This document shows positions 1,615 to 12,061 of a DNA stretch of 64,000 nucleotides, one piece after another. The stretch's first letter is position 1. Every line of letters begins with the position of its first letter. A program made the translations under genes and the position numbers. The notes under the pieces are model-generated. The model searched no databases. It was given only the letters and a program-made list of their open reading frames with translations, and had not been told where the DNA came from. Source of the DNA: Marinicella sp. (lineage in GTDB: Bacteria > Pseudomonadota > Gammaproteobacteria > Xanthomonadales > Marinicellaceae); NCBI GenBank assembly GCA_965230295.1, contig OZ246001.1, positions 384,001-448,000 on the forward strand, written 5' to 3'.

Positions 1615-2133
1615 TCACAAATTCAAAGTCAGACCTTTCAAACCGTCAACATCCACATTGAAGTTTTTGGTCAAGTCTTTCAGATTTGCGACATCAATTT
1701 CTCCATCCATGCTGATGAATACGAACTCATCCCCGGCTTCAAAGACCATGATGGATAAATCGCTCAATGTCATGCCATCAACTTTGGCCATGATGTGAAC
1801 ACGCTCATCGCCTTCGACCACTTTAACAATTTCTTCAACACCATTGCGAGCCAAAGCACTGACAGTATCACTCATCCAATCACTGATGTCAGCGGCATCA
1901 ACCGCATCAGTTAACTCATACACTTTGATCGACAAGTCGTTCAATCCGGACAACACCGCTTGTGCTTCTGGGTCATCTGCAGACAGCATTTTGGCCATGC
2001 CTAACATGCCAGGGCCCAAAGTGATTTTCACATTGGCTTCAACGCCCAAGATACTTTCTAGCTCATCAAAATCTCTGGCCCAAGAACTGACTGAGAACAG
2101 ACATAAAATCAAAACCATCATTAACTTTTTCAT
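1615..2133 (-). CDS. Secreted DUF4252-like protein
   Basis: Signal peptide MKKLMMVLILCLFSVSSWA; DUF4252-like pattern (LSIKVYE, VKVVEGDERVHIM, EFVFISMDGEID). Confidence 0.65.
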   Translation of the reverse strand: MKKLMMVLILCLFSVSSWARDFDELESILGVEANVKITLGPGMLGMAKMLSADDPEAQAVLSGLNDLSIKVYELTDAVDAADISDWMSDTVSALARNGVEEIVKVVEGDERVHIMAKVDGMTLSDLSIMVFEAGDEFVFISMDGEIDVANLKDLTKNFNVDVDGLKGLTLNL

Positions 2134-2219: not shown

Positions 2220-2227
2220 ACAGAAAT
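2220..2227 (+). repeat. Left target-site duplication ACAGAAAT
   Basis: Identical to 9186-9193; 8 bp is the usual IS1595-family duplication length. Confidence 0.9.
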
Positions 2228-2250
2228 CGCTTAAATTGATCAAATGCACA
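2228..2250 (+). repeat. Left terminal inverted repeat CGCTTAAATTGATCAAATGCACA
   Basis: The reverse complement of 9163-9185 is CGCTTAAATTGAGCATACGCACA (3 mismatches). Confidence 0.9.
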
Positions 2251-2389: not shown

Positions 2390-2806
2390 TTAAGTGTTCT
2401 GAATTTTATTTTTGATTTTTTCTTTTATTTTGACCAAATCAATAATAAGAATGTAAGAATCTAACTTTTCAAAAATCATAGATGAAAGTTCGTCTTTATC
2501 AAGAATTTCTATAGACTCATCATTAAGAGCAAAATATTGATGTTTTTCATCTAATGATTGCCATTCTATTTTTTTTTCTTTGTACGTTTCGAGATGCTTT
2601 TTGATTTTAGTAATTGACATTCCTGTATTAGTTAATGATTTTAGGCAAACAAGTAACATTAAATCACTATAAGAATATCGTCTTCCAACACCTTTCTTGC
2701 CAGAAGTCAAACTAGCTTCCAAAATTGAATGCCGCTGATAATAATGAAGCATATGGACGCTATGCCCTGAAATTTTTGATGCTCTTTCTGTACTTACTGT
2801 TTCCAT
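2390..2806 (-). CDS. MerR-type helix-turn-helix transcriptional regulator
   Basis: STERASKISGHSVHMLHYYQRHSILEAS...GRRYSYSDL is a MerR HTH pattern; the ATG at 2806 is preferred over the TTG at 2842, which lies inside the promoter palindrome. Confidence 0.75.
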   Translation of the reverse strand: METVSTERASKISGHSVHMLHYYQRHSILEASLTSGKKGVGRRYSYSDLMLLVCLKSLTNTGMSITKIKKHLETYKEKKIEWQSLDEKHQYFALNDESIEILDKDELSSMIFEKLDSYILIIDLVKIKEKIKNKIQNT

Positions 2807-2811
2807 ACTGA

Positions 2812-2851
2812 ATATTATAATTGAGTATTGAGCAATACTCAATTATAATAT
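2812..2851. promoter_or_regulatory. 40-bp palindrome forming overlapping divergent sigma70 promoters, and likely the operator
   Basis: ATATTATAATTGAGTATTG-AG-CAATACTCAATTATAATAT; plus strand TTGAGT(2821-2826)-N17-TATAAT(2844-2849); mirror copy on the minus strand (2842-2837, 2819-2814). Confidence 0.8.
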
Positions 2852-2900
2852 AATTACAAATATGTGGTATAAACCCTATCTAATTTGAACAGGAGATGTA

Positions 2901-4106
2901 ATGTCATCATTCCGTTACATGGGAACAAAGAAATACTTAGCAACGAAAGTAAAGCGTTCTATCGACATTGCTTCTAAGCATGGGCAAATGGCCGATTTGT
3001 TTTCTGGCATGGGGGCTGTTGCTCGAGAATTTTCCTCAGAACGTTCTGTCTTTTTAAATGATGCAATGACATTTCCTACTGTCTGTTCTAAAGCATATTT
3101 TTTAGATAATGACCTGAAAATTAACGATCATTTAATAAAAGAAATTTATTCATTGTTCAGTAGGCACAGGGCTTTGCTAAGGTCAAAGTTTGAAAGGAGA
3201 ATAAAGCAAGAAAAGAAAGCTGTTCTTGGTGGAAGCGAATCTTTGAATGATTGGATGCTCCAGGCTCCACATGTTGGCAATAGCACACATTACAACAATA
3301 TGAAGAATGCTGCTAAACTAGAGTCTGGGCCATTGAATTATCAACTGATAACTTTATATTTTTCAGCTTCATATTTTAGCACTTCTCAAGCAATTGACCT
3401 TGATGCTTTAAGATACGCAATTGAATCCTTGTCTAAGAGGGATGGTAAATCTCCATTAATAGCAGTTTGGTTATCAACTGCAAGTGTTTTGATTAATGCT
3501 CCAGGTCATTCTGCCCAATTCTTAAAACCAAACAACGATTCCTCTTACAATAAAATATGCAGAGGCTTAACGCGAGACGTTTGGGCGACATTTGTTGACT
3601 TGTTGAGCAATTTTTCTCCTTGTGGAAGTCTATCATGGAGAAAAAGTAATAAGGTTTCTAAGAGTGATGTTTTAAAATTACTGGATGTTGGTCTTCCATC
3701 AAACGTATCTGTAGTTTACGCCGACCCACCTTATACTGGAGACCAATATTCAAGATATTATCACGTTTTTGAAACCATGTTGTTATACAACTATCCAACA
3801 TCAAAGGGATGTGGAAGGTATCCTGAAGGTAGGTTTACCTCACCATTTTGTTTAAAAACAAAAGTAGTTGACTCATTTGAACAAATGTTTTGTAGGATTA
3901 TTGACCACTCCGTTCCGCTTGTATTATCCTATCCATCAAACGGATTATTGTCCAAAGTGGGGGTCGATATTATTGAACTAGCAAATGACACCTTTAGGAA
4001 AATTGATAAAGCTGAAAGCCAAATCAATCATTCGACAATGGGAGCTTCCAAAGGAGCTCAAAAAAAATCTGTTAAAGAATATATATTGACATGTTACCCT
4101 GCATAA
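2901..4106 (+). CDS. Adenine-specific DNA methyltransferase (D12/FokI-like, alpha class)
   Basis: RYMGTK, ADLFSGMG (SAM-binding motif I), VVYADPPY (motif IV), YSRYYHVFETM; RBS AGGAGA. Confidence 0.88.
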   Translation: MSSFRYMGTKKYLATKVKRSIDIASKHGQMADLFSGMGAVAREFSSERSVFLNDAMTFPTVCSKAYFLDNDLKINDHLIKEIYSLFSRHRALLRSKFERRIKQEKKAVLGGSESLNDWMLQAPHVGNSTHYNNMKNAAKLESGPLNYQLITLYFSASYFSTSQAIDLDALRYAIESLSKRDGKSPLIAVWLSTASVLINAPGHSAQFLKPNNDSSYNKICRGLTRDVWATFVDLLSNFSPCGSLSWRKSNKVSKSDVLKLLDVGLPSNVSVVYADPPYTGDQYSRYYHVFETMLLYNYPTSKGCGRYPEGRFTSPFCLKTKVVDSFEQMFCRIIDHSVPLVLSYPSNGLLSKVGVDIIELANDTFRKIDKAESQINHSTMGASKGAQKKSVKEYILTCYPA

Positions 4107-4122
4107 ATACAAAGGAGTTCCA

Positions 4123-5043
4123 ATGAGTGATCTTGAAACATTAGAAATTAGCCAAATAGAAAGAGATCCGCATAACCCAAGAATAAACTTCCCTCAAAAT
4201 GAGCTAAATAAATTATCTGAATCAATTGATAAAGCAGGTGTTTTAGTCCCAGTGGTTGTTTATAAATATAAAGATAAGTATCGACTCTTGGACGGAGAAA
4301 GAAGGTGGAAATGTTGCAAAAAACTCGGTTTGACGAAAATACCAGTAATTATTATTGGAGAGCCAACTGAGGAAGATCGATTAACTTGGATGTTTAACAT
4401 TCATCAGGTACGAGAACGTTGGCAAGATATGCCAACAGCATTGGCATTAAAGAAACTGGTAGATGAAACCGGCATTACAGATAAGAAAGAATTAAGCAGG
4501 CTAACTGGATTATCTTCAAAGCTCGTAGATCAATATCTTTATATTGTAGAACTCCCTCAAGATATGCAGGATAGTATTGCAAATAAAGATATGGCAATGA
4601 ACTTTTTCTGGGAGTTGAAACAAGTTTTGGAAAACCTAAAGAAAAAGAGGCCTAATATTTATAATGACTATGAAGCTGACGAGCTCATGAGAAAATTTGT
4701 GGATAAAAGAGCAAGTAACGTCATTACTGATACAGTCTCACTTCGTAACGCCAATTATATTATTCAAAAAGCATCAGAAGATGATCCTGAAAATATCAAA
4801 GAAGGAGAATTGGATGAAGTAATCAGGGACATGATAGATGACGAAAGTAAGTCAGTTAACGATGCATATGAAGAAACTGTTATGGTTGCTGTTGAGCTTG
4901 ACAAACTGTTAACAAAATCTATGTCTGTTGTTAAGGCATTCACAAGATTATTAGGAAAAGCTCAAGAAGAGCAAGAACGCTTAGAAATTAAGAATATTGG
5001 TAATCAGATTATTAAACAACTTGACACAGCATTAGACAATTAA
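4123..5043 (+). CDS. ParB/Srx N-terminal domain protein
   Basis: NPRINF...LSESI...GVLVPVVV...YRLLDGERRWKC (ParB boxes I/II), followed by an HTH-like segment KKELSRLTGLSSKLVDQYL; RBS AAGGAG. Confidence 0.85.
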   Translation: MSDLETLEISQIERDPHNPRINFPQNELNKLSESIDKAGVLVPVVVYKYKDKYRLLDGERRWKCCKKLGLTKIPVIIIGEPTEEDRLTWMFNIHQVRERWQDMPTALALKKLVDETGITDKKELSRLTGLSSKLVDQYLYIVELPQDMQDSIANKDMAMNFFWELKQVLENLKKKRPNIYNDYEADELMRKFVDKRASNVITDTVSLRNANYIIQKASEDDPENIKEGELDEVIRDMIDDESKSVNDAYEETVMVAVELDKLLTKSMSVVKAFTRLLGKAQEEQERLEIKNIGNQIIKQLDTALDN

Positions 5044-5933
5044 TGAGTGAAAGCAATGAGAAATACTTGGATGCTCTGCTTAAATGTAAGTCAGTAAGTT
5101 CATGCGTTATTCCTGATAGCCCGATCATTTTTTCAAATACCGCATGGACTCCCGATGCTATATGCAAAATAAATAATAAGGATACATTGGTATGTATTCA
5201 CTCAGTAGATGATGAAATCCCACATTTTCTAATTAAAAGGTTGCTGGCAACAGAAACATCTGATTATCAAGTATTAATTATTACTGGTTACAAAATTCTA
5301 AGAAATCTTGAACATTTTAAAAAACTTTTAAAAATCAATTCACTGGTATCATTTTATGGCTATCAGTCAGAGCTTATGACTGAACCTGAGAATATTGCAT
5401 TAGCCGTTGCAAAATCAAATATCAAAGTCAAAAGGGAACTACTACTTTATTTACTTGAGTTAAGCCGAAATGCTGAGACAAGTTGGGATAAAGGTAAAAG
5501 GTTTGAGCAATTGTTGTGTCTCTTTTTTTCCCAAATAGAAGATTTTCATATTTTTAGCTCAAACTACAGAACTGAAACGGAAGAAATTGATGTAGTTATT
5601 CAAATACGTGAAAGTTGCTCTACGCGATGTTGGGCGAGATTTGAAGCACCTTATATTTTTATTGAGGCAAAAAATCAAGCGAGCAAAGTTGGCCAGCGTA
5701 TTATTTCGACACTTATAGGAATATTGTCTGTAAAAGGTTTTTCAACAAAACTAGGAATAACTATTTCTATGAATGGATTTACAGCGGATGCAAAAACTCA
5801 AGCACTGAGAAATAGCGATGCGCAAAAAAAAATAATTTTGTTAACAGCTGATGAAATCGACACATGGATTCAAACAGGACGTTCACTAGATGATCAGCTT
5901 GAACAGAGAATTAGCGAAGCATTGATTGATTAA
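5043..5933 (+). CDS. Mrr-like PD-(D/E)XK restriction endonuclease
   Basis: KGKRFEQLL...EEIDVV...IFIEAKNQ...GITISMNGFTADA; start overlaps the ParB stop (TAATG). Confidence 0.8.
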   Translation: MSESNEKYLDALLKCKSVSSCVIPDSPIIFSNTAWTPDAICKINNKDTLVCIHSVDDEIPHFLIKRLLATETSDYQVLIITGYKILRNLEHFKKLLKINSLVSFYGYQSELMTEPENIALAVAKSNIKVKRELLLYLLELSRNAETSWDKGKRFEQLLCLFFSQIEDFHIFSSNYRTETEEIDVVIQIRESCSTRCWARFEAPYIFIEAKNQASKVGQRIISTLIGILSVKGFSTKLGITISMNGFTADAKTQALRNSDAQKKIILLTADEIDTWIQTGRSLDDQLEQRISEALID

Positions 5934-6004: not shown

Positions 6005-6928
6005 TTATAGAATATCTAAGAGTTCTGAGTACAAATATTCATCATCTTTACCTTCATAGTATAGCCTTATAAATTTGTTTCTTTTTTTTAAACTTAATCC
6101 CATGAATTTCATATAATGTTTTAGCATCGTTCCCTTATATGGTGGGTGAAACTCCATACAAACACCTTCAATAATAGAAAACACTTTATTCATCTTTAAA
6201 AAATCTTTCTTTATCCTGGTTAGGTCTTTTGTAACTGTTAATTGGCTAAAAGTAACTTTTCTTCGCCAAAAGTTGGTAAATCTTTTTTTGCACATAAAGT
6301 ACAACAACATATACTCCTCACTGAATCCAAAAACACTAAAACAAGCAAAAGAATAATCAAATATCTTTTGTAAAATTAAATCTCTATTGGCAAGGTTGTT
6401 GTCAATTTCTGACTTCATTAATAACAGCATAAATGATGACAACGCTTTTTGAATATCAGTGCCAGTAAATTTATCGATTTGACCTTCTAAATTTTGAGTA
6501 TCTATACTGTAAACATCACCATCTAAGTTCAAAAGGTCAATATACACTTTTAAATCTTTTATATTCCTACCCAAGTCATCGATGTCTGAATCATCCTTAA
6601 CATCAGCTAAAAACCAGTCCCAAATTGGCATATCAAAAATATCTCTGGAACCAGGGAAATAATATTCAGTGTATTTCAATGTTTTTTCGTTTGGGCATGG
6701 CGGATTTGCAGAGTTAACATATTTCTGGTATTTACTCGTTGCGTTGTAAACCTGATTCTTTTCGCTTTTGTTATATGCACGTTTTTTACTTTTTTTTCTT
6801 AGAAATGAGTGCGACTCAAATTTTTCACCATAATTTATAATCGCTCGAATTTGGTTACCATTTCTACAGTTGCCTATCATCATGACAGTAGAAATCCAAA
6901 CTTTTATCTTTAATTGCAATAAATTCAT
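6005..6928 (-). CDS. Hypothetical protein, possibly with an N-terminal HTH-like region
   Basis: 307-aa ORF in the AT-rich element; KYQKYVNSANPP...YFPGSRDIFDMPIW segment. Confidence 0.65.
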   Translation of the reverse strand: MNLLQLKIKVWISTVMMIGNCRNGNQIRAIINYGEKFESHSFLRKKSKKRAYNKSEKNQVYNATSKYQKYVNSANPPCPNEKTLKYTEYYFPGSRDIFDMPIWDWFLADVKDDSDIDDLGRNIKDLKVYIDLLNLDGDVYSIDTQNLEGQIDKFTGTDIQKALSSFMLLLMKSEIDNNLANRDLILQKIFDYSFACFSVFGFSEEYMLLYFMCKKRFTNFWRRKVTFSQLTVTKDLTRIKKDFLKMNKVFSIIEGVCMEFHPPYKGTMLKHYMKFMGLSLKKRNKFIRLYYEGKDDEYLYSELLDIL

Positions 6929-7318: not shown

Positions 7319-7573
7319 ACTAAATCAGCAAGAGAAGAAATGAAAAAACCAAATGGTTGCAGCCATTTGGTTTAATCGGTTGTCATTAATTAACGAATCA
7401 AGACAATAATCCGATTATAGCATTTCCGAACCTCATTTTGTCAAGACAAACAAGCTATTTTGATAGCTTGATAAGCCTTCTTTTGCATTTTAAAAATATG
7501 GCTGCGCGAGGCTAAGCAGTCATCAAATTGGAGAATATCATGTTAATGATCCAAAACTATAATGGAGGAATTT

Positions 7574-8653
7574 ATGCCTCAAAGCTATAGACAATCGAGT
7601 AAGAGAAGAAATATCACCCTTAATGATATTTACAAAATGTCAGAACAAGAAGCAATAAATTTCATTGCAAACATTAGGTGGGGTTCAAAAACAAAGCAAG
7701 TGTGTCCCAATTGTTGGGTTTTCGACAAGCATTATTCTAAGAAGAAAAGAAACCAGTGGGTATGTAAACATTGCAATCATACATTCAGTATTACATCTAG
7801 CACTGTATTCGCTAACAGAAAATGTAGTGTCAAAAAAATATTGAAACTATTATTTATATTTTGCAATTCTGCCAAAGGCACAAGTGCCAATGAATCCACT
7901 GGTTTTCTTGGTTTGAGCCATAAGTCTATTTGGTTATCTAACCATAAGATCAGAGAAGGATTACTTAGATCTAGAGATTTAAGTCAATTGAACGGTATGG
8001 TACATGTTGATGGTGCTTTTTTTGGTGGCAAAAGACGCCATGGACGTATTCGAAATTACAAGATCGCTCACAAGCATTTTGAAGCAAAGATTGCTTCCAA
8101 AGGTAAGAAGAAATTACCTATGAATGCGATTCAGCGTCGAAATGCCTATATTAGACGGAAGAACAGAAGGGTCGTTATGGTATTTCGTGAAGTTGATCCG
8201 ACCAAAGGAATCGGAGCTGTGAAAACTAGAGTAACTGTTGTTCGAAATGAAAGCGAAGATTCAGTCAAGCCACATACTGAGAGGTTTATCCAAGCGGGCA
8301 GTACTGTTTGGACTGATGAGCATAAAGCGTATAATCACTTGTCGAAACAACATAGGCATGAAACAGTTGAACATTCAAAAGAATTTATGACTAAAGATGG
8401 GGTTCACAACAATCATGCTGAGTCGTTTTTCTCGAGGCTAAGAAGATCTGAGTATGGTGTATTCCATGGCATGAGGCCTCAGTACATGATTGATTACGCC
8501 AATGAAATGTCATGGCGGGAAGATATGCGTAGAAAATCTCTGCTAGAACAATTATCAGATTTAATTGTTAGAGTGTTTTCGGTTGGTGAATCAATCTGGT
8601 GGTGCGGTTATCACCAGGGACATCGACGCAATGATGAATTGTTAAACTTTTAA
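7574..8653 (+). CDS. IS1595-family DDE transposase
   Basis: Zn ribbon CPNC...CKHC, HTH, catalytic VHVDGAFFGG / VWTDEHKAY / HNNHAESFFSRLRR; RBS GGAGG favours ATG 7574 (track start 7562). Confidence 0.93.
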   Translation: MPQSYRQSSKRRNITLNDIYKMSEQEAINFIANIRWGSKTKQVCPNCWVFDKHYSKKKRNQWVCKHCNHTFSITSSTVFANRKCSVKKILKLLFIFCNSAKGTSANESTGFLGLSHKSIWLSNHKIREGLLRSRDLSQLNGMVHVDGAFFGGKRRHGRIRNYKIAHKHFEAKIASKGKKKLPMNAIQRRNAYIRRKNRRVVMVFREVDPTKGIGAVKTRVTVVRNESEDSVKPHTERFIQAGSTVWTDEHKAYNHLSKQHRHETVEHSKEFMTKDGVHNNHAESFFSRLRRSEYGVFHGMRPQYMIDYANEMSWREDMRRKSLLEQLSDLIVRVFSVGESIWWCGYHQGHRRNDELLNF

Positions 8654-9162: not shown

Positions 9163-9185
9163 TGTGCGTATGCTCAATTTAAGCG
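9163..9185 (-). repeat. Right terminal inverted repeat
   Basis: Inverted match to 2228-2250. Confidence 0.9.
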
Positions 9186-9193
9186 ACAGAAAT
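9186..9193 (+). repeat. Right target-site duplication ACAGAAAT
   Basis: Identical to 2220-2227. Confidence 0.9.
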
Positions 9194-9218
9194 AAAAAAA
9201 GCCCGAATAATCGGGCTT
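9194..9218 (-). terminator. Intrinsic terminator of the yajC-secDF operon
   Basis: AAGCCCGA/TCGGGCTT stem with an A7 run (U-tract on the minus strand). Confidence 0.8.
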
Positions 9219-9246
9219 CTTCATGATTCTATTATTTGGCTCCTGC

Positions 9247-10197
9247 TTATGGAATATGATCCAGATTAGCGCCTTCTTTCTCCACCGGGATCAAATCTTC
9301 ACGGCTGATACCCAAAGCCAAAGTGGTGGTACTGGCCACGAATATTGAAGAATACGTACCAATGATCACACCCACAATCAGGGCAAAAGCAAAACCATGG
9401 ATCAAAGCACCGCCAAAAAAGAACAATGCCAACAACACCAACATGGTGGTGAATGAGGTGATCACTGTTCTGGACAGGGTCTGGCCTATGGATTTGTTGA
9501 TTACTTGCTCTGTAGTTGACTTGCGACCTTTGCGGAAGTTTTCCCTGATGCGGTCAAACACCACAATGGTGTCATTCAAGGAGTAACCAATCACTGCAAG
9601 CAATGCTGCCAGTACTGTTAAGTCGAACTCCACTTGCCAGATGGAAAACACCCCAGCGGTGATCACCACGTCATGAACCAAGGCTGCAATGGCACCCAAA
9701 GAAAAGCGCCACTCAAATCGGATGGTGACATAGATCAAGATGCCGATAATGGCATATAACAATGCCAAAGAACCTTGTTCCACCAATTCATCGCCTACTT
9801 GTGATCCCACATAATCGACTTTTGATACTTCAGCCGAGCTGTCCAATTGTTTCAGAACACCCAGAATTTCATTACTTAACTTGGCTTCATCAACACCTGC
9901 ATCGGCCTCAGATTCACCTTGGGGTGGCAAAGTGATTTCGATGTCCGTGCTGGCCCCAAAATTTTTAACCACTGAATTATCGTATCCGTTGTTTTCAAGC
10001 TGTGTTCTGATGTCGGTGATGACTGCGGGTTGATCAAACTTCACCACCACGACCGTGCCACCGGTAAAGTCCAACCCAAAATTCAATCCTCTGGTGACCA
10101 AAGACCCCAAAGCAACCACAATCAAAGTCAGTGATAAAAACATCGCTGCCTTGCGGTGCCCCATGAAATCATACTTAATATTTCCTAATATATTCAT
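9247..10197 (-). CDS. secF: Protein translocase subunit SecF
   Basis: GLNFGLDFTGG, IGYSLNDTIVVFDRIREN, GTYSSIFVA; start at MNILGN after RBS AAGGAG (track start 10245). Confidence 0.96.
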   Translation of the reverse strand: MNILGNIKYDFMGHRKAAMFLSLTLIVVALGSLVTRGLNFGLDFTGGTVVVVKFDQPAVITDIRTQLENNGYDNSVVKNFGASTDIEITLPPQGESEADAGVDEAKLSNEILGVLKQLDSSAEVSKVDYVGSQVGDELVEQGSLALLYAIIGILIYVTIRFEWRFSLGAIAALVHDVVITAGVFSIWQVEFDLTVLAALLAVIGYSLNDTIVVFDRIRENFRKGRKSTTEQVINKSIGQTLSRTVITSFTTMLVLLALFFFGGALIHGFAFALIVGVIIGTYSSIFVASTTTLALGISREDLIPVEKEGANLDHIP

Positions 10198-10207
10198 TAT
10201 CGACTCC

Positions 10208-12061
10208 TTATATGGCAATTGACTGCAGTTTTTTCTTGCGACCATAAATCAAATTAACAATCGCTCTGGACAACACAATGGCGGTGAACATGGAAGTCAC
10301 GATCCCAACACTCAAAGTAACGGCAAAACCTTTAATGGGCCCAGTACCAAAAGCAAACAACACCACCGCTGCAATTAAGGTGGTTACATTGGCATCAGCA
10401 ATGGTTGAAAAAGCCTTGTCGTAACCTGCTTTGATACTACCCTGTATGGTATTTCCTTCCCGAATTTCTTCTTTAATCCGTTCAAAAATCAACACATTGG
10501 CATCCACTGCCATACCAACGGTCAAAACAATTCCGGCTATTCCCGGCAGGGTCAGTGTGGCACCAAACAATGACAAACAGGCCACCATCAGTACCACATT
10601 GATGGTCAATGCGATGTTGGCAATGACACCAAACATGCGGTAATAAATCAGCATAAACACCAACACCATGGCCAAACCAATTTGCACAGATACCACACCT
10701 TTATCGATGTTGTCCTGACCCAAAGAAGGCCCAATGGTGCGTTCTTCGACAATTTGAACGGGCGCGGCCAAAGCTCCCGCTCGCAATAACAAGGCCAATT
10801 CAGCGGCTTCTTTTTGGGTGAAACCACCCGTGGTCTGGAAGCGGTTAGAAAACACGCCATTGATACTGGCGTTACTGATCACTTCTTCTTTGTCTCGGTA
10901 TTGCATTTCACCGGCTTCATTTTTACCAATGGGAATGCGTTCTTTAAAAACCACACCCATGAAATTGCCTACATTGTTCTTGGTGAAATCCAACATTCTG
11001 GCAGCGCCAATGCTGTTGAGTTGTACATTCACCGCATGTTGTCCGGTCTGCTGATCAATGGTGGCCTGGGCCCCGGTTAGCTGATTACCCGTTGCGATGA
11101 CCCTGTTTTTCAGATAAATCGGCTGACCATTGGACTCAAAGTACAAAGTGCTTCCAGGGGGTGTTCTTCCTGTTTGATAGGTTCTTTGTGCTTCTGCATC
11201 AAAACTGTGTGTGGCCCGGTATTCTAAAGTGGCGGTGGCGTCTAAGATATTCTTCGCAACTGTGGTGTCCTGAACACCTGGCAATTGGACCACAATGCGA
11301 TCCAAACCTTGACGTTGAATGATGGGCTCAGCCACTCCAATTTCATTCACCCGGGTTCTTAAAGTGGTTAAGTTCTGATTCAGCGCATTTTCCTTGATGC
11401 TATTTAAAGATTGTTCACTCAATAAGCCTGTGAGCGTATATGAATCAGCACTGATGTCTTCACTGATTGACAATTCTGTGAAGTCGTCTTCAATCAGATC
11501 TTTGGCTTGGGTTAAACCAGCTTCATCCCTGAATCCAATCACCAAGCGATTGGCTTCCCACTTGAGTGATTTCTTAGGGATTTTCTGCTTGATCAATAAA
11601 GCGGTGATGTCAGAACGAATTTGTTTTTTCTTGTTCTCTTCTGCTTTGCTCATATCCACTTCTAACAAGAAGTGGACACCACCACGCAGATCAAGACCCA
11701 GGTTCATGGCACTGCCGCCCAAATTTTCCAACCATTCAGGTACATTGGGTTTTAGATTCATCGCCGTATCAAATCCAGCCAGATCCCGTTTCAACAGATC
11801 CTGTGCTTGTCGTTGACTGTCCAAGTCAGCAAATTTCACAATGGCCGTCTCCCCATCAATTGACACTTCATCAAAAGCAATTGATTCTTCACTCAGTAAG
11901 TTGGTTACTTTATTCAGTGTCGGCTGGGATACGGGCACATCTTCCTTGGCTTTGATTTGCACCACAGGGCTTTGGCCGTAGATGTTGGGTAAGGCATACA
12001 ACCCGCCAAAAGCCACTATCACCATCACCAAGATGTATTTCCATGCAGGATATCGATTCAT
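10208..12061 (-). CDS. secD: Protein translocase subunit SecD
   Basis: LGLDLRGGVHF, IVVQLPG, GPSLG, GMAVDANVLIFERIKEE. Confidence 0.97.
   Translation of the reverse strand: MNRYPAWKYILVMVIVAFGGLYALPNIYGQSPVVQIKAKEDVPVSQPTLNKVTNLLSEESIAFDEVSIDGETAIVKFADLDSQRQAQDLLKRDLAGFDTAMNLKPNVPEWLENLGGSAMNLGLDLRGGVHFLLEVDMSKAEENKKKQIRSDITALLIKQKIPKKSLKWEANRLVIGFRDEAGLTQAKDLIEDDFTELSISEDISADSYTLTGLLSEQSLNSIKENALNQNLTTLRTRVNEIGVAEPIIQRQGLDRIVVQLPGVQDTTVAKNILDATATLEYRATHSFDAEAQRTYQTGRTPPGSTLYFESNGQPIYLKNRVIATGNQLTGAQATIDQQTGQHAVNVQLNSIGAARMLDFTKNNVGNFMGVVFKERIPIGKNEAGEMQYRDKEEVISNASINGVFSNRFQTTGGFTQKEAAELALLLRAGALAAPVQIVEERTIGPSLGQDNIDKGVVSVQIGLAMVLVFMLIYYRMFGVIANIALTINVVLMVACLSLFGATLTLPGIAGIVLTVGMAVDANVLIFERIKEEIREGNTIQGSIKAGYDKAFSTIADANVTTLIAAVVLFAFGTGPIKGFAVTLSVGIVTSMFTAIVLSRAIVNLIYGRKKKLQSIAI

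Follow-up and report, generated by a model that had tools for sequence, protein, structure and literature searches.

Several described systems resemble, each in part, the locus reported here. The C proteins of type II restriction-modification (R-M) systems are of the Xre type. PD-lambda-5 is a compact 'RM+Abi' system, as set out in the available part of Vassallo et al. 2022 (PMC9519451), and Menshen (NsnABC), according to the available part of PMC12065111, combines a ParB-DUF262 DNA sensor with an effector that has an inactive nuclease-fold N-domain and exchangeable C-terminal toxin domains, an arrangement its authors read as sensor/transducer/effector. Here, we analysed a 64,000-nucleotide stretch of DNA from Marinicella sp. 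(assembly GCA_965230295.1, contig OZ246001.1, positions 384,001 to 448,000; hereafter the window), in which three co-directional, tightly coupled genes encode a DNA adenine methyltransferase (MTase), a ParB-family protein and a nuclease with an Mrr/FokI-type catalytic domain (Table 1). The order MTase-ParB-third gene is conserved across phyla; sequence comparison indicates that this chassis is unnamed and that the trio ending in an Mrr-like nuclease is one of its branches. With moderate confidence, we read the cassette as a self-contained, horizontally mobile, methylation-based and restriction-like form of immunity, which is carried here as transposon cargo.

Relatives were collected by a ParB-motif scan of one genome per species, and the best 80 of 195 relatives, from 20 named phyla, made up the locus set. 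Every one of the 23 other loci in the window's ParB clade that were long enough (L017 is a 1.6-kb contig) kept the order MTase-ParB-nuclease, and their hosts spanned five phyla (Pseudomonadota, Verrucomicrobiota, Acidobacteriota, Actinomycetota and Planctomycetota). Twenty of these 23 loci carried an MTase of the 400-amino-acid (aa) type and three (L005, L006 and L023) a short Dam-class gene, while 20 homologues of the window MTase were found upstream of ParB genes. The closest relatives included a Verrucomicrobiota metagenome-assembled genome (MAG) with a ParB 70% identical to that of the window. A word-indexed search returned 157 ParB relatives, most of them full-length and 39–51% identical, and only two relatives of the nuclease; an exhaustive profile search returned 124 representative nuclease clusters at E ≤ 1e-30, most of 290–320 aa and full-length. 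The nuclease was carried by 2 of 44 genomes of the host's family, the second of which repeats one of the loci above, and DNA similarity between these two genomes (68.6%) was limited to window positions 2587-5869, that is, to the four genes from merR to the nuclease gene and not to the insertion sequence. An earlier note on this DNA had expected a four-gene order, led by a gene for a MerR-type helix-turn-helix (HTH) protein, to recur; the MTase-ParB-nuclease part of that order did, and the MerR part did not, since MerR was encoded by only 3 of 24 clade members, counting the window: L003, L004 and the window itself. Apart from MerR, no divergent regulator was conserved upstream of the MTase in the other loci, the remaining small clusters being near-duplicate loci, and no conserved fourth gene was present in the flanks of 21 Mrr-clade loci. 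The conserved unit is therefore three genes, not four. In an actinobacterial MAG (L008:2758-3645), the nuclease aligned in its first half and then diverged, and looks frameshifted or decayed.

The same MTase-ParB pair was found with other third genes. Across the 80 loci, ParB had a co-directional upstream neighbour in 74 and a co-directional downstream neighbour in 75. Of 75 upstream genes scanned (those of the 74 loci and the window), 70 matched MethyltransfD12, and the five exceptions were short, partial or, in one case, a helicase gene. The third gene began between -60 and +20 nucleotides (nt) from the ParB stop in 69 of 75 cases and overlapped it by 1 or 4 nt in 21 of 75. Including the window, there were 76 third genes: 35 HEPN-like genes (~280 aa, no Pfam or PADLOC match), 24 Mrr-like genes, 15 PRTase-CE genes, which match the PADLOC model PRTase_III-A, a retron effector, one DUF6602 gene (L030:7926-8711 in a Planctomycetota MAG, E = 7.7e-16) and one other. 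The DUF6602 gene would represent a fourth effector class on this chassis. The module originally proposed for this locus, a DNA adenine MTase, a ParB and an Mrr-like nuclease, thus kept its order in the Mrr clade, but elsewhere the nuclease is swapped for HEPN, PRTase or DUF6602 proteins. At one locus (L067:4414-6975), an 853-aa ResIII/DEAD helicase-type gene replaced Dam upstream of ParB, and a more distant MTase gene lay downstream.

The HEPN-like and Mrr-like third genes were linked by a common N-domain. The HEPN-like family was modelled with a predicted local distance difference test score (pLDDT) of 94, and its C-domain matched 1wwp and SO_3166 (Z 9.4 each), RnlA (8.8), LsoA (7.9) and HepS (7.3). 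Because helical bundles score easily, the invariant R235-N-x3-H240 motif of this family is the stronger argument for HEPN, and the 35 members are predicted, from model and motif together, to be HEPN RNases. The N-domains of the HEPN-like and Mrr-like proteins were homologous (hhalign E = 3.5e-5, columns 41-124 vs 42-123), and their top structural matches were common to both, namely 2okf (Z 9.7 vs 8.3), 2vld and 2ph7. On a ParB tree built by a quick search, the Mrr label formed one clade and the HEPN-like set another (Shimodaira–Hasegawa-like approximate likelihood ratio test values of 95 and 98, respectively), and the third-gene labels changed 5 times over the tree, compared with a mean of 34.4 when shuffled, with the caveat that kin share labels. 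On this tree, the ParB clades follow the third gene. Between clades, ParB identity was 0.45–0.47 in the N-domain, 0.23–0.27 in the HTH and 0.17–0.20 in the C-terminal third, which was the most clade-specific region (0.40 within clades). Overall, a defence or addiction cassette fits these loci because of the conserved order, the coupling, the swappable toxic third genes, the shared adaptor domain, the clades that follow the effector, the mobility and the patchiness.

In the window ParB (Table 1), as in the other cassette ParBs (81 in total), box I (N18-P19-R20) and box II (D57-G58-E59-R60-R61) were invariant, with the Gln of the canonical box I Q-P-R replaced by Asn. Box III was remodelled to M-F/Y-N-I-H-x-x-R-x-x-W, in which H94, R97 and W100 were present in 81/81 proteins and N92 in 69/81. 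Judged by this pattern of conservation, the nucleotide pocket is under selection; the pocket may, but need not, be CTP-specific and hydrolytic, given that box III is remodelled and its alignment ambiguous. Profile positions 11-169 aligned to structures of ParB, Noc and Spo0J solved with a nucleotide (6sdk at 1.5e-27, 7bnk and 7nfu; CDP/CTPgammaS). The C-terminal 135 residues had no sequence relative among solved structures, and a Protein Atlas search with residues 170-306 gave scores of only 0.85–0.86, within the chance range, one of them for a RepB cluster. The host genome encodes a second ParB homologue of 32% identity, very distant in the tree (end branch 5.47), which is probably the chromosomal one. 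No ParB relative was found by tblastn (1e-10) in 72,556 plasmid and 50,697 phage records, and none of the eight open reading frames (ORFs) of the surrounding island had a ParA-type Pfam match (E ≤ 0.01). The cassette is probably not a partition system, in line with the earlier judgement that, with no parA or replicon at hand, partitioning was unlikely.

An ordinary type II R-M pair, in which an unrelated ParB-type regulator or silencer happens to lie between the two enzymes and serves only KorB-like transcription control or element upkeep, would explain why the locus has a FokI/Mrr-type nuclease as well as an MTase. The ParB-family protein KorB does act as a repressor, and it was among the solved relatives of the window ParB (7e-10). 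However, ParB was intercalated in 23/23 Mrr-clade loci, often with translational coupling, and its clades track the third gene; the MTase-ParB pair also occurs with third genes that are not DNases, leaving no R-M pair at all. A plain repressor would have no need of an invariant nucleotide pocket, and the nuclease lacks a recognisable DNA-reading domain. We regard an R-M pair with a bystander ParB as distinctly improbable.

The nuclease was modelled with a pLDDT of 91.4 and a predicted template modelling score of 0.90. In VIA-align comparisons, its C-domain matched the small subunit of R.BspD6I (2p14; Z 12.0, root-mean-square deviation 3.4, 147 aligned), followed by AF1548 (1y88; 10.8), N.BspD6I (10.7), EcoT38I (10.0) and the cleavage domain of FokI (2fok; 9.8), while Foldseek on the whole model gave weak, partial matches only. 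The N-domain matched XisH (2okf, Z 8.3), NucS (2vld, Z 8.3) and SfsA (4dap, Z 8.1), with only W35, P37 and R66 invariant and no conserved catalytic D/ExK. The suggestion that the N-terminal part of the nuclease is another PD-(D/E)XK fold, without activity, therefore has support of middling strength from the folds matched and the missing D/ExK. No Pfam match to a modification-reading domain (Mrr_N, SRA, DUF262), such as the N-terminal winged helix of type IV Mrr enzymes, was found in the nuclease, although unlisted families remain possible, and the model suggests a generic cleavage module without an evident DNA reader. When ParB and the nuclease were submitted to complex prediction, the median score was 0.57, with one control reaching 0.42, a result that weighs neither for nor against binding of the two proteins. 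A separate protein, P0242 (437 aa), combined a nuclease domain close to that of the window with a weak match to HEPN_Toprim_N (6.9e-4, below cut-off), and echoes a fusion of HEPN/Toprim-NTD1 to an Mrr-like restriction endonuclease listed in the available part of PMC3710099.

The Mrr_cat family includes methyl-dependent enzymes, and AspBHI (Z 8.8) and MspJI (Z 8.2) were also among the structural matches of the nuclease, as would suit a modification-dependent (type IV-like) system in which the nuclease attacks foreign modified DNA and the MTase has another role. In a variant of this explanation, ParB would instead assist the MTase in the manner of DndB or DpdB; ParB-superfamily proteins do accompany modification enzymes in Dnd and Dpd systems, according to the available part of PMC12839542. 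However, a resident N6-methyladenine (m6A) MTase beside a methyl-dependent nuclease would be self-toxic, none of the three reader domains named above was detected, and the ParB is a canonical ParB_N plus HTH protein rather than a DndB or DUF262 protein. A modification-dependent or modification-helper system is accordingly very improbable in our view.

The gene architecture of the window was as the earlier note had described it: its ORFs, their coordinates and their tight linkage were reproduced with all four genes intact, including the 16 bp that separate the MTase stop (4106) from the ParB ATG (4123), and the TAATG overlap (5041-5045) before the nuclease gene. An AAGGAG ribosome-binding site lies inside the 16-bp gap. 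The motifs reported there as intact were likewise present in the translations, namely DPPY in the MTase, DGERR in ParB and D...EAK in the nuclease, where D183, E208 and K210 (E208-A-K210), together with E155 and N211, were conserved across the family alignment. The MTase has a long central insert between its N-terminal part and DPPY, which is taken as the target-recognition region, and its sequence had no match among solved structures at E ≤ 0.01.

That a divergent HTH gene shares its control region with the trio was borne out by a perfect palindrome between merR and the MTase gene, which contains two face-to-face sigma70-like sites, one per strand, each of the form TTGAGT-17-TATAAT. Across the promoter scan as a whole there was no enrichment (33 sites found vs 29.0 expected), and these two are consensus matches only. 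The palindrome is the sole strong one and lies within the promoter; it is nearly identical in L003, though the L003 proteins are only 57–74% identical, and degenerate in L004. We infer that it is the operator of MerR. Promoters served by MerR activators have long spacers, and MerR would here repress rather than activate because both spacers have the optimal length of 17 bp. The merR ORF runs for 150 aa from a TTG at 2842, but translation probably starts from the ATG at 2806 (138 aa). That codon lies just beyond the palindrome, and the leader would then be very short.

The four genes lie in a low-GC stretch of eight ORFs between a DUF4252 gene (1615-2133, minus strand) and secF (9247-10245, minus strand), with a GC content of 28–37% inside and 44–47% outside. 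This island is a 6,958-bp IS1595-family transposon with cargo, inserted just beyond the secF terminator (9195-9222). Its terminal inverted repeats (23 nt, imperfect) were the sole two matches within the 64 kb, with 0 expected by chance, and an 8-bp target duplication is typical of the IS1595 family; transposase with zinc ribbon, terminal repeats and 8-bp duplication were all present. The transposase was present in a single copy in the host genome. Three congeners (G003, G007 and G010) had empty sites, in which the DUF4252 gene and secF are 10–90 bp apart and the island is absent. Thus, the statement that the genes are transposon cargo was supported by the repeats, the duplication, the transposase and the empty sites alike.

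Table 1. Features of the IS1595-family island and its cassette, in window coordinates
Feature	Position	Strand	Basis or remark
Left target-site duplication	2220..2227	.	ACAGAAAT, read from sequence; identical to 9186-9193
Left terminal inverted repeat, IS1595-family transposon	2228..2250	+	Repeat search of window
MerR-family HTH gene	2390..2842	-	Pfam MerR_1 1.1e-7; weak NCBIfam HspR/SoxR/TnrA-type matches
Perfect 19+19-nt palindrome, predicted operator	2812..2851	.	Repeat search; between merR and MTase gene
Promoter-like site for merR	2842-2814	-	Consensus match only
Promoter-like site for MTase operon	2821-2849	+	Consensus match only
D12/Dam-class N6-adenine DNA methyltransferase, 401 aa	2901..4106	+	Pfam MethyltransfD12 4e-13; PADLOC generic MTase_II 1e-25
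ParB, 306 aa: ParB_N nucleotide-binding domain, ParB HTH, family-specific C-terminal region (~170-306)	4123..5043	+	Pfam ParB_N 4.8e-18, HTH_ParB 8.6e-7; TIGR00180 parB_part 1e-24, above cut-off
Two-domain nuclease, 296 aa: degenerate PD-(D/E)XK-fold N-domain (1-123), Mrr/FokI-type catalytic domain (128-296)	5043..5933	+	Pfam Mrr_cat 2e-8; structure model
Cargo ORF orf307, 307 aa, AT-rich	6005..6928	-	Unassigned family
Cargo ORF orf84, 84 aa	7064..7318	+	No family in Pfam/PADLOC/NCBIfam; one weak relative in L021 (1e-4)
IS1595-family DDE transposase, N-terminal zinc ribbon	7562..8653	+	Pfam DDE_Tnp_IS1595 3.8e-37, Zn_ribbon_IS1595 1.2e-10; NCBIfam transpos_IS1595 1.3e-37
Cargo ORF orf163, 163 aa	8642..9133	-	No family in Pfam/PADLOC/NCBIfam
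Right terminal inverted repeat	9163..9185	-	3 mismatches vs left repeat
Right target-site duplication	9186..9193	.	ACAGAAAT, perfect 8-bp direct repeat with 2220-2227

Of the remaining cargo, orf307 had no match in Pfam, PADLOC or NCBIfam and no usable match in the Protein Atlas, and may have an additional defence or accessory role. The gene orf163 converges on the transposase gene, the two overlapping by 12 nt at their 3' ends. In the flanks of the 21 Mrr-clade loci (102 ORFs), a TrwC relaxase with AAA_30 was found in 3 ORFs, rve in 2, TniB in 1 and PIN_8 in 2; the relaxases suggest carriage on integrative conjugative elements. In several Actinomycetota (L011, L016, L018 and neighbours), the cassette lay just 3' of a co-directional gene of ~1,200–1,290 aa.

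This mobility also bears on a selfish explanation. Post-segregational killing has been described for type II R-M systems, and the cassette could be an addiction module that stabilises its mobile carrier: upon loss, methylation would decay and ParB with the effector would kill the cell, defence being a side effect. The cassette rides a transposon here, adjoins relaxases, integrases and TniB elsewhere, and is patchily distributed; the HEPN and PRTase effectors are of cell-killing rather than DNA-restricting types, and the one-operon layout, with a palindromic promoter under autoregulation, fits tight dosage control. On the other hand, no relatives were found among the plasmid and phage records, in which addiction modules are common, and many loci have plain chromosomal surroundings. 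Addiction and defence are not exclusive, and both expect the same parts. As the primary role of the cassette, we consider addiction rather unlikely.

In the immunity reading that we favour, the MTase would mark the host's own DNA, and ParB would act as the sensor, binding DNA via its HTH and using its conserved nucleotide pocket as a switch or clamp. DNA-engaged ParB would then recruit or license the effector, the contact probably being made between the clade-specific C-terminal third of ParB and an 'adaptor', the degenerate PD-(D/E)XK N-domain common to the DNase and HEPN effectors. Unmarked (foreign) DNA would then, in the window, be cut by the FokI/Mrr-type domain, itself without an evident DNA reader. 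The MerR-type protein, found in the window subclade only, would bind the 40-bp palindrome covering both promoters and probably represses itself and the operon. This specific clamp-and-license mechanism is put forward tentatively. It is likewise possible, without being probable, that a canonical ParB clamp serves as an innate immune sensor that loads on DNA lacking the cassette's m6A, closes, spreads or slides and delivers or activates whichever effector lies downstream (the Mrr-type DNase here, a HEPN RNase or retron-type PRTase in sister cassettes) through the shared adaptor.

Several observations weigh against this reading. Box III of ParB is noncanonical (canonical ENxQR), and its alignment is ambiguous, since HMMER and MAFFT differ. 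The MTase (length) classes switch within ParB clades, and the ParB HTH did not co-vary with MTase class, its between-clade identity being 0.27 whether the MTase type matched or differed. The idea that the HTH reads the MTase's own site was thus unsupported, as the HTH does not track MTase class. ParB may sense methylation otherwise or not at all, and the manner in which methylation is read is the weakest link in the argument. None of 10 longer proteins with the nuclease domain had a ParB domain (0/10), so that no ParB-nuclease fusion was seen, and the Z of ~8 for the N-domain is in a range that the tool calls common. Apart from the mobility and PIN_8 genes, the ORFs flanking the Mrr-clade loci were housekeeping genes in heterogeneous settings, not typical defence islands. 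Finally, the loci were chosen through ParB motifs and the contexts of the nuclease are known only via these loci, which include near-duplicates (L016/L020 and L017/L018), so that the counts are not independent.

If the reading is true, it would join the study of CTP-switch ParB clamps, which are familiar from the segregation of chromosomes and plasmids, with that of restriction-like immunity, two fields hitherto without contact, and one sensor would let a methylation mark gate DNA cutting, RNA cutting and phosphoribosyl transfer. The cassette would then represent an unnamed defence family spread over at least 20 phyla, and a canonical ParB_N plus HTH clamp would for the first time have a role in immunity. 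At ~3 kb, modular and present in at least 20 phyla, it is directly testable in E. coli. The window is also a clean case of the capture of an entire candidate defence operon by an IS1595-family transposon, one route by which such systems can spread.

The description of the module as a candidate new system was supported by comparison with named systems. In PADLOC, the window proteins had only generic MTase_II and oMTase matches and, for the nuclease, a weak match to PDC-S02 (1.2e-4). No description of a Dam-ParB-Mrr, Dam-ParB-HEPN or Dam-ParB-PRTase cassette was found in the literature, with subscription journals largely outside the search. Like the cassette, PD-lambda-5 is compact and joins a Dam-class MTase to another protein, and PD-Lambda-5_B is weakly matched by the short Dam MTases of the sister cassettes (~1e-12). 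It differs in having two genes, A followed by the MTase (L090 is a genuine example), rather than MTase-ParB-nuclease; the A protein of L090 has 470 aa and no Pfam match, and its alignment to the G-x-R-R region of ParB was marginal (hhalign E = 0.017, probability 2.7%). The term ParB is absent from the main text of PMC9519451. The PD-Lambda-5_A models (PDLC04016 and PDLC04017) had no match in six frames of the whole host genome and missed the three sister-cassette ParBs tested, and the window MTase, ParB and nuclease had no PD-Lambda-5 match at E ≤ 0.01, including PD-Lambda-5_B (PDLC04018 and PDLC04019) for the MTase.

Menshen, as far as the available part of its description goes, differs from the cassette in its DUF262-branch sensor (ParB_N plus HTH here), in its need for the ABC ATPase NsnB, for which the cassette has no counterpart, in having no MTase and in an effector N-domain that resembles PIN and not PD-(D/E)XK folds. 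GmrSD/SspE/BrxU-type enzymes and the DUF262 plus HEPN_MAE_28990 pair also link a ParB-superfamily NTPase with an effector, either a nuclease or a HEPN protein, according to the available part of Anantharaman et al. 2013 (PMC3710099). The window ParB matched Pfam ParB_N and had no GmrSD_N (DUF262) domain. The HEPN_MAE_28990 operon was rejected as the same cassette: 10 genuine PF18737 loci, from 401 genomes, had no cassette-type ParB, no Dam and no match to the HEPN-like hidden Markov model within 1.5 kb on each side; the partner was GmrSD_N/DUF262 in 4/4 tested, and 5/5 HEPN-like third genes tested had no match to PF18737 at E ≤ 1. In these loci (L096-L105; 10 of 401 Pseudomonadota genomes), the HEPN_MAE_28990 proteins (205–230 aa) each lie behind a conserved gene of ~350–375 aa, forming a compact ParB-superfamily plus HEPN pair. 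The host genome itself contains a weak, sub-threshold HEPN_MAE_28990-like match (L095, G000:C1:3781586-3782170; E = 7.9e-5, 23.7 bits).

Type II R-M systems with a C protein share with the window the combination, within a single mobile unit, of an MTase with a PD-(D/E)XK nuclease, as well as a small divergent HTH gene with a palindromic operator over the promoters. They differ in that a ParB gene always lies between MTase and nuclease here (23/23 related loci, a comparative argument), the nuclease has no evident DNA-recognition domain and the controller is MerR-type and present in 3/24 clade members. The type IV enzyme Mrr resembles the nuclease in its Mrr_cat domain, with the D...ExK residues present. 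The CTP-dependent clamps ParB, Spo0J, Noc and KorB have the same ParB_N and ParB HTH domains with conserved boxes I and II, but here there is no ParA and no replicon, box I has Asn and box III is remodelled; compared with ParABS, the upstream neighbour is an MTase in 70/75 cases and no ParA ATPase is adjacent. The sister cassettes Dam-ParB-PRTase and Dam-ParB-HEPN differ from the window in their third gene, which is PRTase-CE or HEPN and not an Mrr-type DNase, in ParBs that form separate clades with ~30% identity to that of the window, and, in most of them, in a short (~280 aa) Dam instead of a 400-aa MTase. They share with it the gene order, the ParB family (NPR / DGERR / MFNIH) and a Dam-class MTase upstream, and the HEPN sister cassette also shares the effector N-terminal domain with the window nuclease.

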